The notes beneath the pieces were generated by a model that saw only the letters and a program-made list of their open reading frames with translations, was not told the DNA's origin and searched no databases. Positions 54,087-63,724 of a DNA stretch of 64,000 nt are shown piece by piece; positions within the stretch are counted from its first letter, which is position 1; each line of letters opens with the position of its first letter. The DNA comes from Planctomycetota bacterium (GTDB lineage Bacteria; Planctomycetota; UBA1135; UBA2386). The stretch is from contig OZ245006.1 of the NCBI GenBank assembly GCA_965223545.1, positions 5,632,001 to 5,696,000 on the forward strand, written 5' to 3'. The translations under genes were made by a program, and so were the position numbers.

Positions 54087-54590
54087 ATGGCCGCCGCCGA
54101 TCCGCTCCCGCCAGATCCCTCCGCGCCCCGGCCCCGTCTCGAGCCGTCCGGTGGGGGATTGCCCGGGGACGACGAGCTGGCGCGGATCCGTGAGATCCTG
54201 GTCGGGGCGGCGCTGCGCCAGGTGAACGCGCGCTGCACGGTCTTGGCCGACCAGCTCGACGCCGGCCTGCGCGCGCTACGCGAGGACGTCGACCAGCGGT
54301 TGCGCCGCCTGGAGACGTCCGTCGAGCAGCGCTTGACGCAGCGCGACCGGGATCGGCAGGCCGTCGACGAGCGCGTGCGCGGTGAGCTGGCCGATCTGCG
54401 CGCCGCCTGGCGGCGCGAGCTCGAGGCCACGACCGAGCGCCTCGGCCGAGACGCGGCCTCCGCGATCGACGGGCTCCGGTCGCAAACGCTGGGGCGCGCC
54501 GATCTCGCCGCATTGCTGGCCGAGCTCGGCCAGCGGCTGGGCGACCGCGGCGACGAGGCCTCCGCCCGTGGAGAGCCCGGTGAGCGCTGA
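54087..54590 (+). CDS. Coiled-coil protein, first gene of the Rab-like GTPase operon
   Basis: ELARIREILVG, long heptad region, C-terminal R..LAALLAELG..L; 11-nt overlap with the next gene. Confidence 0.8.
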   Translation: MAAADPLPPDPSAPRPRLEPSGGGLPGDDELARIREILVGAALRQVNARCTVLADQLDAGLRALREDVDQRLRRLETSVEQRLTQRDRDRQAVDERVRGELADLRAAWRRELEATTERLGRDAASAIDGLRSQTLGRADLAALLAELGQRLGDRGDEASARGEPGER

Positions 54591-56274
54591 ACGCAACGGG
54601 GCGGGTGGGGTCCCGCCGGCCGAGCTGGCCGAGCTCCGCCGCCTTCTCTTCGGCAAGGAGCACGAGGGGCTCGATGAGCTGCGCGCGCGGTTCGGCGATC
54701 GGGAGCGGTTCGCGGAGGAGTTGGCGGGGCTCTTGCCGGAGCTGTTGGCGCGCCGCGAGCAGCCCGACGCGCGCCTCGGTCGCGCCCTGTCGCCGACCTT
54801 CGAGATGCTGCTGCGGGAGTCCGCCCGCCGCCATCCGGAGGTGATGCGCGACGCGGTGTTCCCGATTCTCGGGCCCGCGATCCGCAAGGCGGTCAGCGCG
54901 GCGATCGCCGGGTTGGCGCAATCGATCAATCGCACCCTCGAGGAGACGGTGTCGGTGCGCTCGATGCGGTGGCGCTTCCAGGCGTGGCGCACCGGCCGGT
55001 CGTTCTCCGACATCGTGCTGCTGCACAGCCTGCTCTACCGGGTCGAGCAGGTGTTCTTGGTTCACCGCGAGAGCGGTCTACTGCTGGCGCACGTGTCCGC
55101 GCAGGACGCGCCGCCGACCGCCCCCGACTTGGTCTCGGGAATGGTGACGGCGATCGGCGACTTCGCGCGCGACTCGCTTGGCTCCGGCGATGGCGAGCTG
55201 TCCAGCTTCCGCGTCGGCGACTTGACCATGCTCGTCGAGGGCGGGCCGCATGCCGTCGTCTGCGTCGCGGTGCGCGGCGTGCCGCCGGGCGACCTGCAGG
55301 CGCTGTTGGTGGAGACCGTCGAAGACGTGCACCGCGAGCTCGCCTCACCCCTGGCGGCCTTCGACGGCGACGCCACGGCGTTTCGCCGTGCCGAGCCGCT
55401 GCTCGAGCGATGCCTGCGCCAGCAACGCCGCCCGACGCGGCGCAGCCCGGTGGGTTGGGTGCTGATGGGCTCCGCCGCCGCGGCGCTCGTGGTGGGAGCG
55501 GTTTGGTGGTGGAGCCAGCGCTCCGCGCGCGACGCGCTGTGGCAGTCCTACCTGGAGCGGGTCGCGCAGGAGCCTGGCCTCCTGGTGGTCGACCAGCAGC
55601 GCGACGCCGGTGTCTATCGCTTGGTCGGGCTGGCCGATCCGCTGGCCGCCGATCCCGCGCAGCTGCTCGCCGACGCCGGTCTCGACCCGGCGCGGGTGTC
55701 GATGCGTTGGGAGCCGTACGCGGCGGCGGCATTCTTGTCGGCGCGGGCTCGCCGATTGCTCGAGGTGCCCGACAGCGTGCGGCTCGACGTGCGCGGCCAG
55801 ACCCTGGTGCTCACCGGCCACGCCGCGCCGCAGTGGGTCGCGGAGGCCGAGCGGCGCGCCCCGCTGCTCGGTGCGACCGACGTCGACAGCAGTGGTCTGG
55901 TGAGCGTCGATCTCGACGAGCTGCGCGTCTACCAAAAACGCGCCAACGCCCTGGTGCCCGCGTTCGGCGACGGCGTGACGGTTCTCGACTACGAGCGGCT
56001 ACGGCCGGTGGCCGATCTGTTGGCAGCCGCCGAGCGCTTGGCTCGTCAGGCCGGTGGCGGGCTCGCCGTAACTGTGTCGGGCTATGGCGACACCGGTGAC
56101 GCCGAGGCCGTCGCGTTGGTCACCGCGCGGCGGCGGGCAAACTTCGTGCGGCGCACCTTGGAGGAGTTGGTCGAATGGTCGGCAACCGTCTTCGAAGCGG
56201 AGGCGCGCGGCGATTTCGGCGGCGCGGGCAGCGTGCGGTTCGAGCTGCAATGGCGAGCGGAGGCCGGGCGGTGA
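54580..56274 (+). CDS. Membrane protein: helical N-terminus, longin-like domain, TM, BON-like region, degenerate OmpA-like domain
   Basis: YRVEQVFLVHRESGLLL...DLVSGMVTAIGDFARDS; TM at about 55450-55515; VTVSGYGD...RRANFVRRTL. GTG start at 54580. Confidence 0.8.
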   Translation: MSAERNGAGGVPPAELAELRRLLFGKEHEGLDELRARFGDRERFAEELAGLLPELLARREQPDARLGRALSPTFEMLLRESARRHPEVMRDAVFPILGPAIRKAVSAAIAGLAQSINRTLEETVSVRSMRWRFQAWRTGRSFSDIVLLHSLLYRVEQVFLVHRESGLLLAHVSAQDAPPTAPDLVSGMVTAIGDFARDSLGSGDGELSSFRVGDLTMLVEGGPHAVVCVAVRGVPPGDLQALLVETVEDVHRELASPLAAFDGDATAFRRAEPLLERCLRQQRRPTRRSPVGWVLMGSAAAALVVGAVWWWSQRSARDALWQSYLERVAQEPGLLVVDQQRDAGVYRLVGLADPLAADPAQLLADAGLDPARVSMRWEPYAAAAFLSARARRLLEVPDSVRLDVRGQTLVLTGHAAPQWVAEAERRAPLLGATDVDSSGLVSVDLDELRVYQKRANALVPAFGDGVTVLDYERLRPVADLLAAAERLARQAGGGLAVTVSGYGDTGDAEAVALVTARRRANFVRRTLEELVEWSATVFEAEARGDFGGAGSVRFELQWRAEAGR

Positions 56275-56771
56275 AGCAGCTGAAAGTGTGCATGCTCGGC
56301 GCATACGCCGTCGGCAAGACCAGTCTCGTCTCTCGCTTCGTGGCCGGCGTGTTCTCCGAGCGCTACATCACCACGATCGGCGTCAAGATCGACCGCAAGG
56401 ACGTCGTCGTCGCCGATCACCACGTGCGGCTCGTGCTCTGGGACATCAACGGCGAGGATCGCTTCATCAAAGTGCAGCCGTCCTATGTCAAGGGCGCCAG
56501 TGCCTGTCTGCTGGTGGCGGACCCGACCCGCGGGGTGACGCTCGACGTGGTCGAGGACCTGCGCCGCCGTGCCCGCGATCACGCCGGCGACGTTCCCATG
56601 CAGGTCGTGCTCAACAAGCACGACCTGCTCGATGCCTGGGCCTTCGACGAGGATGCGGCGCGGGCCCGGTTCGGCGACCTCGAGGTGTGCACCACCAGCG
56701 CCAAGACCGGCGCCGGGGTCGAGGACATGTTCTGCGGGCTCGCGCGGCACTGCGTCGGCGGCGTGGGCTGA
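56271..56771 (+). CDS. Rab-like small GTPase (Ras superfamily)
   Basis: G1 GAYAVGKT, G2 TTIGV, G3 WDING, G4 NKHD, G5 TSAK; GTGA overlap with the upstream gene. Confidence 0.92.
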   Translation: MKQLKVCMLGAYAVGKTSLVSRFVAGVFSERYITTIGVKIDRKDVVVADHHVRLVLWDINGEDRFIKVQPSYVKGASACLLVADPTRGVTLDVVEDLRRRARDHAGDVPMQVVLNKHDLLDAWAFDEDAARARFGDLEVCTTSAKTGAGVEDMFCGLARHCVGGVG

Positions 56772-58837: not shown

Positions 58838-59536
58838 CTACGCCGGCCGCTCGCGGAAGTCCAACCGCCCCCGCGATCGCCGCCACCCGCCCTTCAGCAG
58901 CCAAGTCCGCGCCCGCACCGTCGGCCGCGCCACCGGCTCCGACAGCTCCACCTCCTCACGCCACCCGTCGAACCAAGGCCCCGACGAGTAGACGTCGATC
59001 GCCTGCCGCGGCCGCTGCCGGTGGTGCCAAGCATTCTGCAGCACATACACCAACGCCCGCCGCACCTCCGTCGGCGAGCGCAGCACCCGCTCGTGAAACC
59101 GCTCGGCGAACACCCGCCCCGAGCGCCCCCAGAGCTTGTTCAACCCCCGCGCCATCCGCACCAACAGCCCGGTCATCCCCCGCGTCAACGCCTCCCGGTC
59201 CTTCGCCTCCACCAGCAAATGCAAGTGATCGCGCTGCACCGAGAACTCCACCAACCGAAACCCGAACCGCCCACACCCCGCCCGGATCCGCTCCACCAAC
59301 ATCCAGTACGTCCGCGCATTCCGCAGACTGGGCAACCCCCGACACAACCGCACCGTCAAGTGTAGGGGATACCGCGCCACCAACGCCCCCCGCGCCAAGT
59401 GCGGCACCGTCTCATCACTCACCTTGGGCCGCCCAGCCCCCTCCCGAGCCCCACCCCACTGCCGAAACGGCAGCTCGCCCTGCGCCACCCGACGGCGCCG
59501 TCCACCGCGCCGCGCTTGAACAGTCTTGTTCGTCAT
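58838..59536 (-). mobile_element. HUH/Y1 tyrosine transposase (RAYT/IS200-like)
   Basis: WGGAREGAGR, PLHLT.R, HUH motif DHLHLLVE, G.VFAERFH, Y1 motif YVLQN, YSSG.WF; strong strand skew. ATG at 59536. Confidence 0.85.
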
Positions 59537-59858
59537 TTGAATTAGCGACCTTATGAAACAGGAAGTGAACATGCAAGAACGCGACAAGAAAACCGGTCGG
59601 GAGGGCCGCCGACCGTGGCGGAGCTGAGGCGAATGCGCACGACTCCGCGACAAACGCCCCGTCTTGATTCCGCGACCTTCAGTTCAAGCCACGCACCCAA
59701 GCACGGCCCAGGACGACCCGCCGCCCGCAGGTCTGGATCCGGAGGCCGAGGGAGCGCGCACGCAGCACGCCCCAGGGCTTCCACCACCCCCAGCTCCAGA
59801 GCTGAAGGCTCGCCTTGGCACGCGAGCGCCGGAGGTTTGGAGAGACAGTGTCTCCTGG

Positions 59859-61153: not shown

Positions 61154-61543
61154 ATGGGTTTCATCCAAGAGTTCAAAGAGTTTGCGGTCAAAGGAAACAT
61201 GGTCGACATGGCGGTCGGCATCATCATCGGAGGTGCTTTCGGCACGGTGGTGAAGTCGCTGGTCGACGACCTCCTCATGCCCCCGCTCGGCTACCTGACC
61301 GGTGGAGTCGACTTCTCCGATGAGAAGCTGACCCTCGGCACCGACGAGCCGGTGGACATCACCTGGGGCAACTTCGTCAACAACCTGATCGCGTTCCTGA
61401 TCGTCGCGTTTGCGGTGTTCCTGCTGGTGAAGGGCATCAACGCGCTGCGTCGGGAAGAGGAAGAGAAGCCGGCGGCGCCGCCGGAGCCGAGCGACGAGGT
61501 CAAGCTGCTGACCGAGATTCGCGACGCGCTGCAGAAGGGCTGA
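61154..61543 (+). CDS. mscL: Large-conductance mechanosensitive channel
   Basis: [35 protein letters not shown]. Confidence 0.97.
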
Positions 61544-61905: not shown

Positions 61906-62556
61906 TCAGTCGAGCGTGGTGAGTCCCACGCGAATGGCGAACTTCGTCAGCTCCGCGACGCTGCGGATCTCGAGCTTGTTCATGATGTTCTGCCGGTGGG
62001 TCTCGATGGTCTTGGCGCTGACGTGCAGGGTGGCGGCGATCTGCTTGGTGGACTTGCCCTCCGCCAGTAGCTGCAGCACTTCGCGCTCTTTGGGCGTCAG
62101 AATCGACGCTGGCCCGTCATCGGCGGTCTTCTGTAGCTTGCGCACGTAGTCATCGACGACGACTCCGGTGATTCCAGGGCTCAGGTAGACACCACCGCGC
62201 ATCACCTCGGTGACCGCGGTGGCGAGCTCGTCGAAGGCGCAGTCCTTGAGCAGGTAGCCGGTGGCCCCGGCCTCGAGCGCGCGGCCGACGAAGCTGGCGT
62301 CGGAATGCATCGACAGGGCGATCACGCGCGTGCGGTCGTGATCGCGGCGTAGCTGCCGCGTGGCTTCGATGCCGTTGAGCTCGGGCATCGCCACGTCCAT
62401 CACGACGAGGTCGGGCGTCAGCTTCTTCGCCAGCGCGACCGCTTCGCGGCCGTTGGTCGCTTGACCGACGACTTCGTGCCCGGCACTCGTCAGCAGGGTG
62501 CGCAGGCCGTCGCGCAGGATCTGGTGGTCGTCCGCCAGCAGGATGCGAATCGTCAT
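61906..62556 (-). CDS. NarL/LuxR-family response regulator
   Basis: ILLADDH, MDVAMP, GYLLK, LTPKEREVL...KTIETHR. ATG at 62556. Confidence 0.95.
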   Translation of the reverse strand: MTIRILLADDHQILRDGLRTLLTSAGHEVVGQATNGREAVALAKKLTPDLVVMDVAMPELNGIEATRQLRRDHDRTRVIALSMHSDASFVGRALEAGATGYLLKDCAFDELATAVTEVMRGGVYLSPGITGVVVDDYVRKLQKTADDGPASILTPKEREVLQLLAEGKSTKQIAATLHVSAKTIETHRQNIMNKLEIRSVAELTKFAIRVGLTTLD

Positions 62557-62584: not shown

Positions 62585-63724
62585 TCAATCGGAAAGTGGA
62601 ACGTGAATCGTGATGCGGGTGCCGGCGCCGGGCTGCGAATCGATCTCGAGCTGGCCGCCTGCGGTCTCGATGCGCTCGCGGACGCTGAACAGGCCGAAGC
62701 CGCCGCGCCGCGGCGCATCCGGGTCGAAGCCCTCGCCGTCGTCCTCGACCGTGACCCAGAGGCGCTCGTCGGCGCGCCAGGTGCGCACGCCCGCGCGGCT
62801 GGCGCCGGCGTGCTTGACCACGTTGTGCAGCACCTCGCGCACCGCTTGGAACACCAGCGAGCGGGTCGCCGGCTGTAGCGGTTTGGCGGTGCCGTCGTCG
62901 CCGTAGTCGGTGTGGATGCGGTCGCGCGCGCCGACCCGCTCGACCAGGCTCTGTAGTGCGGCCTCGAGGCCGAGCTCGTGCAACAGCGGTGGTGCCAGCT
63001 CGGCAGTCAGGTCGCGCGTCAAGGCGATGGTCTCGTCGAGCAGATCGCGCACCGTGGCGAGGCGATCGCCTTGCTCGGCACCGGCTGCCGATTGCCCGAG
63101 CCAGCCGATCTGCAGCTTGGCCAACGCCAGGTTCTGGCCGATGCCGTCGTGCAGCAGGGCTGCCAGTCGGTTGCGCTCGCGATGCTCGGCGCGGGTGACC
63201 GCTTCAGTGAGCTGGCGCAACTCGTCCTGGTAGGCGACGAGCCGTGCGTGCACGCGCCGGCGCTCGGCGATCTCTGCCTGCAGCCGCGCGTTGGTCTCGA
63301 TCAGCGCGGCGGTGTGCTCCCGCTCGGACTGCTCGAACTCGAGGCTGCTCTCGCGCGCCGTCTGCAGGATGGCGTGCAGCTGCTCGTGCGCGCGGTCGGC
63401 CAGCGCCAGCAGCACTAGCCGCCGCTCTGGAGTGCGGACCGCGATCGCTTCGAGGTGGCACGGCCGCTGCTCTCGGTCGTCCTGCGTCCACTCCCCGGAG
63501 CGGACGGAGCGGACTTCACCGCCGCTCCAGACGGCTTTCGCCTCACCGAGAAACTGCGCCAAGTAGGGCAGCTCCGCCGCCAGGTCGACGCGGTCGCCGT
63601 CCAGCTGGGGCATGCGCGCGAGCAACGCTTCCGGCAGGGGGCGGACGGGCCGGTACCATGGGCCACCCAGCGGCGCGAAGGCCGCCAGCCCCAGCGCGGA
63701 GATCAGCTGGTCTTGGGAGTGCAT
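62585..63724 (-). CDS. Cytoplasmic HisKA_3-type sensor histidine kinase
   Basis: ERNRLAALLHDGIGQ, EVLHNVVKHA, DDGEGF, GFGL; no TM segment. Confidence 0.9.
   Translation of the reverse strand: MHSQDQLISALGLAAFAPLGGPWYRPVRPLPEALLARMPQLDGDRVDLAAELPYLAQFLGEAKAVWSGGEVRSVRSGEWTQDDREQRPCHLEAIAVRTPERRLVLLALADRAHEQLHAILQTARESSLEFEQSEREHTAALIETNARLQAEIAERRRVHARLVAYQDELRQLTEAVTRAEHRERNRLAALLHDGIGQNLALAKLQIGWLGQSAAGAEQGDRLATVRDLLDETIALTRDLTAELAPPLLHELGLEAALQSLVERVGARDRIHTDYGDDGTAKPLQPATRSLVFQAVREVLHNVVKHAGASRAGVRTWRADERLWVTVEDDGEGFDPDAPRRGGFGLFSVRERIETAGGQLEIDSQPGAGTRITIHVPLSD

Follow-up and report, generated by a model that had tools for sequence, protein, structure and literature searches.

Three overlapping genes in the window (the whole stretch of 64,000 nucleotides analysed here) encode a small helical protein (A), a single-pass membrane protein (B) and a Rab-like GTPase (C). 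Their arrangement raises two questions, namely which system these genes belong to and what the GTPase controls. The open reading frame coordinates (Table 1) agreed with the overlaps described in the original prediction, i.e. 11 nt between A and B, and GTGA between B and C. A purine-rich GGAG/GGAGG sequence was located 6-7 nt 5' of the start codons of B and C. A 568-aa form of B is also recorded in the protein database, and its length would agree with initiation at a GTG four codons further upstream (54567-54582 of the window); the purine-rich motif favours the start at 54580. No match to a sigma-70 promoter was obtained at the locus, and one terminator-like site was seen as against 1.1 expected. 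The module had been described as one of three genes. All three are real, but a fourth and a fifth gene, both lying outside 54087-56771, had been missed.

Table 1. Features of the Rup locus and of the displaced two-component genes, in positions of the window
Feature	Position	Strand	Description
Gene A (DUFY)	54087-54590	+	167 aa, soluble, helical, likely coiled-coil
Gene B (DUFX:OmpA)	54580-56274	+	GTG start, 564 aa, single-pass membrane protein
Core domain of B, residues 150-284, predicted longin	55027-55431	+	Family conservation, weak sequence scores
Predicted transmembrane helix of B, residues 291-309	55450-55506	+	KD window 1.88
Degenerate OmpA-like C-terminal domain of B	55942-56259	+	Pfam, family profile
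Gene C	56271-56771	+	GTG start, 166 aa, Group 1 Rup small GTPase, G3 without Gln
NarL/LuxR-type response regulator	61906-62556	-	28 nt after the kinase
HisKA_3 histidine kinase, fourth component	62585-63724	-	379 aa, soluble, His192, Rup-associated input domain

Analysis of protein C revealed a Ras-superfamily G domain (Pfam PF00071, E 5.7e-29), and all five G motifs claimed for it could be read in the sequence (G1 GAYAVGKT, G2 T35, G3 DING, G4 NKHD and G5 SAK). The G3 motif carries Glu (E62) at the position of the catalytic Gln, which is present in 4/74 relatives. The reported absence of a CC/CXC prenylation tail was also confirmed, as the last five residues contain no Cys and there is no hypervariable tail. 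Thus, protein C has neither the prenylation cysteines nor the G3 Gln of eukaryotic Rabs. When compared with the PDB, the 60 best of 798 matches were all members of the Rab family. The alignment with RabF1-F5 that had been put forward held in part: 14/27 residues of these segments are identical to the Rab strings used earlier, a count made with no Ras, Rho or Ran control, and this is above the family mean of 11.9/27 over 74 aligned rows but short of the full set. On sequence, the agreement amounts to Rab-likeness rather than to a complete RabF set. Among GTPase relatives with organism names, the two best are labelled Planctomycetota, and are 60% and 57% identical to C; the host is thus probably a planctomycete. 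A phylogeny had been suggested as a check, and in a quick tree of prokaryotic GTPases other than Roc, C and all 73 bacterial relatives formed one branch with an SH-aLRT support of 99. This branch takes in genomes of Nostoc, Anabaena and Nitrospira, which are the same genera as in Table S2 of PMC4316618, represented by other strains. The genome's own MglA and 32 archaeal-type rows stood apart from the branch.

We checked whether the three genes travel together in other genomes, as the original prediction had asked. A single-sequence locus search gave no match, while an alignment profile of B retrieved 576 loci from Cyanobacteriota, Acidobacteriota, Nitrospirota, Gemmatimonadota and others. The best 80 of these 576 loci, ranked by similarity to B and including kin that are not independent, were taken as the sample. 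The synteny was upheld in this sample, where the DUFY gene was directly upstream of B in 73/77 testable loci and the GTPase gene was directly downstream in 67/72. The DUFY profile had been built from 61 of the same loci, themselves found with gene A; in three of the four misses the DUFY gene was present but lay outside the coordinate rule for adjacency. Gene A matched the profile of the 61 upstream genes with an E value of 2e-18, over profile positions 36-95 and 121-201; relative to the family profile, it lacks about 35 residues in its middle part. The coiled-coil character assigned to protein A found support in an amphipathic periodicity of 3.67 residues, with 4/2000 shuffles as high; the pattern is that of an amphipathic helix, and the coiled coil itself is likely. 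A short motif shared by the N-termini of A and B was not significant (hhalign probability 1.9%). Two same-family relatives (L089 and L090, from genomes G030 and G017) possess two DUFY genes in an altered gene order, and in their B proteins the match to the profile stops at about position 450, short of the OmpA-like part.

Such a neighbourhood is already on record. Group 1 Rup was catalogued computationally in 2014 (Wuichet and Søgaard-Andersen, Genome Biol Evol 7:57, PMC4316618), so that novelty of the module is not supported. According to PMC4316618, Group 1 Rup GTPases are without the G3 Gln and adjoin a coiled-coil gene and a DUF-TM-OmpA gene, while the fourth gene codes for either a kinase or a c-di-GMP enzyme, whose N-terminal region contains an invariant Gln. 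In Table S2 of that paper, 22/27 Group 1 rows follow the order DUFY>DUFX>Rup, 16/27 with OmpA, and no planctomycete is included among these 27 rows; the examples named are all3030, Ava_0879, NIDE0273, mll3243 and sce5816. Protein C is likewise a single-domain protein with eukaryote-like G1-G5 motifs, its 166 aa fall in the range of 150-240, and it is not coupled to mglB. Its G3 begins with Asp as in Rup and carries E62 in place of the catalytic Gln; neither an MglA-type G3 nor an adjacent mglB is present, and the MglA of this genome falls far outside the clade. Its neighbours are a DUFY coiled-coil gene and a DUFX-TM-(OmpA) gene, in the published order. The quick tree placed it in the Group 1 clade (support 99), and elsewhere in the window an output protein is encoded whose N-terminal domain bears a Gln. 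Judged by these sequence features, the three genes and the displaced kinase are a Group 1 Rup system of PMC4316618. The present copy differs from the published description in having a HisKA_3 kinase with a NarL regulator, situated 5.8 kb away on the opposite strand, and in its degenerate OmpA-like domain. Beyond a NarL-type output and a host that is probably a planctomycete, it adds little. The term 'Group 1 Rup' was found in one paper only of the literature searched, subscription journals being mostly outside its scope.

The fourth component was identified using a profile of the Rup-associated input domain, which had been built without the sequence of the window. The profile gave one strong match in the genome (E 1e-30; next 0.07), to the kinase listed in Table 1, and the idea that the fourth gene is missing from this genome was rejected on the basis of this match. 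The input domain comprises the N-terminal 130 residues of the kinase and bears the conserved Gln121. No membrane segment and no other sensory domain were found in the kinase, and the NarL/LuxR-type regulator encoded after it is likely to be its cognate partner. Four genes separate the GTPase from the kinase pair, namely those for an M1 peptidase, a Y1 transposase-like protein, a DUF1570 protein and a probable mscL, and none of them had a match in the corresponding regions of same-family relatives. The second of these (58838-59653, minus strand) is like Y1/REP-associated tyrosine transposases, and no repeat family of note was seen flanking it. The 129-aa product of 61154-61543 (minus strand) resembles MscL and had no Pfam or NCBIfam match. 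In four of five same-family loci, the kinase (37-47% identical) and the regulator (61-74%) lie about 2 kb or less from the Rup genes; in the fifth, the contig ends at the GTPase gene. One of these relatives, G009, has the same convergent layout as the present genome with a 1-kb gap.

Either of two domains of similar appearance is found at the start of the genes that follow the GTPase in other loci, and both types have a conserved Gln in their final helix; the profile described above is that of the second type. The two subtypes align weakly (hhalign 13.6%, E 0.002), and Pfam returned nothing consistent for the input domain. Gln121 was found in 45/45 rows with a residue at this position, and we infer that it is the invariant Gln of PMC4316618, from which the idea of a Gln supplied in trans also comes. 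The input domain was present within the fetched flanks in 61/80 loci (best 80 of 576). Of the 19 loci without it, 12 had a PP2C-type gene and six ended within 650 nt of B. In the PP2C loci (L004, L007, L018, L025, L027, L034, L038, L049, L057, L073 and L076 of Gemmatimonadota, and L055), the phosphatase gene occupies the fourth position, B and the GTPase are kept, and the input domain is absent from the fetched DNA. Therefore, the Gln in trans is not universal. Among the 44 input-domain proteins, 21 were scanned and included 13 histidine kinases, two HD-GYP proteins, two sigma-54 activators, one GGDEF-EAL protein, one SpoIIE protein and two without a match. Fusion of one domain to so many unrelated output enzymes is as expected of a swappable input.

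We also counted the components in 301 genomes of the phylum, bearing in mind that G000 and G011 match by construction and that kin are not independent. The GTPase and B were each found in 13 genomes, with 12 genomes having both. The input domain was detected in 12, every one of them among the 13 GTPase carriers, and in none of the other 288 genomes. Since the input domain is confined to GTPase carriers, transcription rather than membrane remodelling is the likely output. The module was present in 5/36 same-family genomes. At another site (G137:C54:116267-121547), two GTPases and two input domains were found around a single B gene.

The only membrane-length hydrophobic segment of B is its predicted transmembrane helix at residues 291-309, with basic residues on the N-terminal side. 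The region before it (150-284), which had been described as longin-like, is the conserved core of a family for which there is no Pfam model. Hydrophobic moments of this core fit helices at 183-199, 240-250 and 267-280, and these helices, together with strands assigned by eye, agree with the order of elements that PMC3747258 gives for longins. All sequence scores, in contrast, were below threshold. These were an Atlas score of 0.77-0.84 to archaeal clusters, some of them named longin or adaptor small chain (one source), Pfam Robl_LC7 in 2/74 and 6/61 members (best E 0.015), and Pfam Fuz_longin_1 in 1/74 members. Profile searches of the PDB with the core gave no longin or roadblock entry, and Pfam gave nothing consistent on 24 further homologues of the core. 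The longin-like assignment is thus consistent with the order of predicted helices and strands but not carried by any score, and a longin fold of residues 150-284 is likely. Longin domains do not occur in prokaryotes according to the 2013 review PMC3747258, and no description of a bacterial longin in a Rup system was found in the literature searched, subscription journals being mostly outside its scope. One protein, P0244 (2171 aa), contains three copies of the core domain, each preceded by helical repeats and a CARDB-like domain.

On the other side of the membrane segment, a region that is probably BON-like precedes the OmpA-like domain. The OmpA-like nature of B is clear in the family, whose profile matched solved OmpA-like domains of the PDB with an E value of 1e-13, but weak in the present copy, which scored 15.7 bits against a Pfam cut-off of 27.2. 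D504 and R519 of the motif are kept, while G507, N512, L515 and R550, at positions each conserved in 66-73 of 74 family rows, are lost. The residues equivalent to D504 and R519 have a role in binding the cell-wall peptide.

The core domain of B was also detected in 59 archaeal-type metagenome loci (L093-L151), where it occurs at gene ends and in tandem genes, up to four. An archaeal origin would follow from one homologue labelled Thermoplasmata archaeon. One or two related Rab-like GTPases are encoded in 33/59 of these loci, mostly just downstream of the core-domain genes, and many of the 26 loci without a GTPase are short contigs. Fusion of the core domain to a GTPase was considered and rejected, since 0 ORFs were shared. 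Neither DUFY nor the input domain was found in any of the 59 loci. The archaeal-type GTPases retain the G3 Gln in 38/39 matches, one match being incomplete. Retention of the Gln where the input domain is absent fits a need for Gln in trans in the bacterial form only. The original prediction had the membrane protein regulating the GTPase. Gene linkage makes this role likely for the cytoplasmic domain of B, since the bacterial trio is linked and 33/59 archaeal-type loci pair the core with related GTPases.

With slightly more than even confidence, we propose that the envelope protein B controls the GTPase through its predicted longin domain, and that the GTPase in turn switches the kinase and its NarL-type regulator. 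The biochemical steps that we infer would run as follows. B would span the inner membrane, its BON/OmpA-like part lying on the outer side, and would report the state of the envelope or position, and A would scaffold the helical N-terminus of B. At the membrane, residues 150-284 would serve as the docking site of the GTPase, substituting for a lipid anchor, and would most likely charge it with GTP, in the way that longin platforms act on Rabs. The GTP form would bind the N-terminal domain of the kinase, where Gln121 would stand in for the absent Gln of G3, and the input domain would then be both effector and off-switch. The coiled coil following the input domain would set the kinase activity, leading to phosphorylation of the regulator and a change in transcription.

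The same parts could be wired in another way, with the B domain acting as a GAP, like MglB for MglA, or with the kinase upstream and the GTPase as the output. MglB-type platforms do act as GAPs (PMC3521125, PMC10933270, PMC3747258), roadblock/longin partners can serve either as GEFs or as GAPs (PMC10933270), the GTPase of the actinobacterial conservon is treated as an output in PMC4316618, and the PP2C loci keep B and the GTPase with no input domain seen. However, a kinase with a cognate DNA-binding regulator, and with no other sensory or membrane domain, needs an input, and the input domain precedes many unrelated output enzymes. On this evidence, we consider the other wiring unlikely.

It is less likely still that in this lineage the module is in decay or has ceased to read the cell wall, with B a mere membrane anchor and the kinase pair independent. 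All five frames are open, D504, R519, Gln121 and all the G motifs are kept, and G009 shares the convergent layout across its 1-kb gap. These observations speak against decay, whereas the four residues lost from the OmpA-like motif, the two same-family relatives with B matched only to about position 450, the four unrelated genes that split off the kinase and the occurrence in 5/36 same-family genomes would be in keeping with it. The role in planctomycete membrane remodelling or polarity suggested originally appears very improbable and was not borne out, for although the best solved relatives of the GTPase are Rabs and its envelope-anchored partner has a likely longin domain, the GTPase occurs in 13/301 genomes of the phylum yet is spread over several other phyla, is linked to signalling enzymes and, as judged by the ORF clusters, to no membrane-shaping gene that recurs beside it, and shares the genome with a separate MglA that has two Roadblock genes.

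The relay from B through the GTPase to the kinase, as proposed here, can be compared with known systems. MglA-MglB of Myxococcus and the Cvn conservon likewise combine a small GTPase with a (likely) roadblock/longin-fold partner, and a histidine kinase is also present in the conservon. Unlike MglB, which is a free dimer, the partner domain here is fused into a membrane protein. The Roadblock-MglA-Roadblock cluster of this genome (G000:C1:5282676-5284800) lies 400 kb from the Rup genes, and its MglA is extended at the C-terminus by a long segment with a hydrophobic stretch at its end. Eukaryotic Rabs with longin GEFs (TRAPP Bet5/Trs23, Mon1-Ccz1) resemble the present pair in a Rab-like G domain and a likely longin platform. 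In contrast to these Rabs, protein C matches half of the RabF residues, has no G3 Gln, CC/CXC or hypervariable tail, and has a two-component pair as its output. The prenylation tail is also absent from archaeal Rab-like GTPases (PMC4915359, PMC10933270). In Asgard archaea, GTPases cannot be matched to their regulators from gene order (PMC10933270).

A bolder reading, to which we give rather less than even credence, is that DUFX is a prokaryotic longin that loads a Rab-like GTPase, that this pair is conserved from bacteria to Thermoplasmata-type archaea, and that the GTPase gates a kinase through a Gln-finger input. The module is widespread, with the B core domain found in 5461 clusters at 50% identity. 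As the operon pairs a GTPase with its likely regulator and has a soluble kinase and regulator as the read-out, GEF, GAP and output assays would be easy to set up. If true, the bolder reading would make this system a complete GTPase relay from the cell wall to transcription, and would offer a model, encoded in an operon, of how longin-Rab regulation arose.
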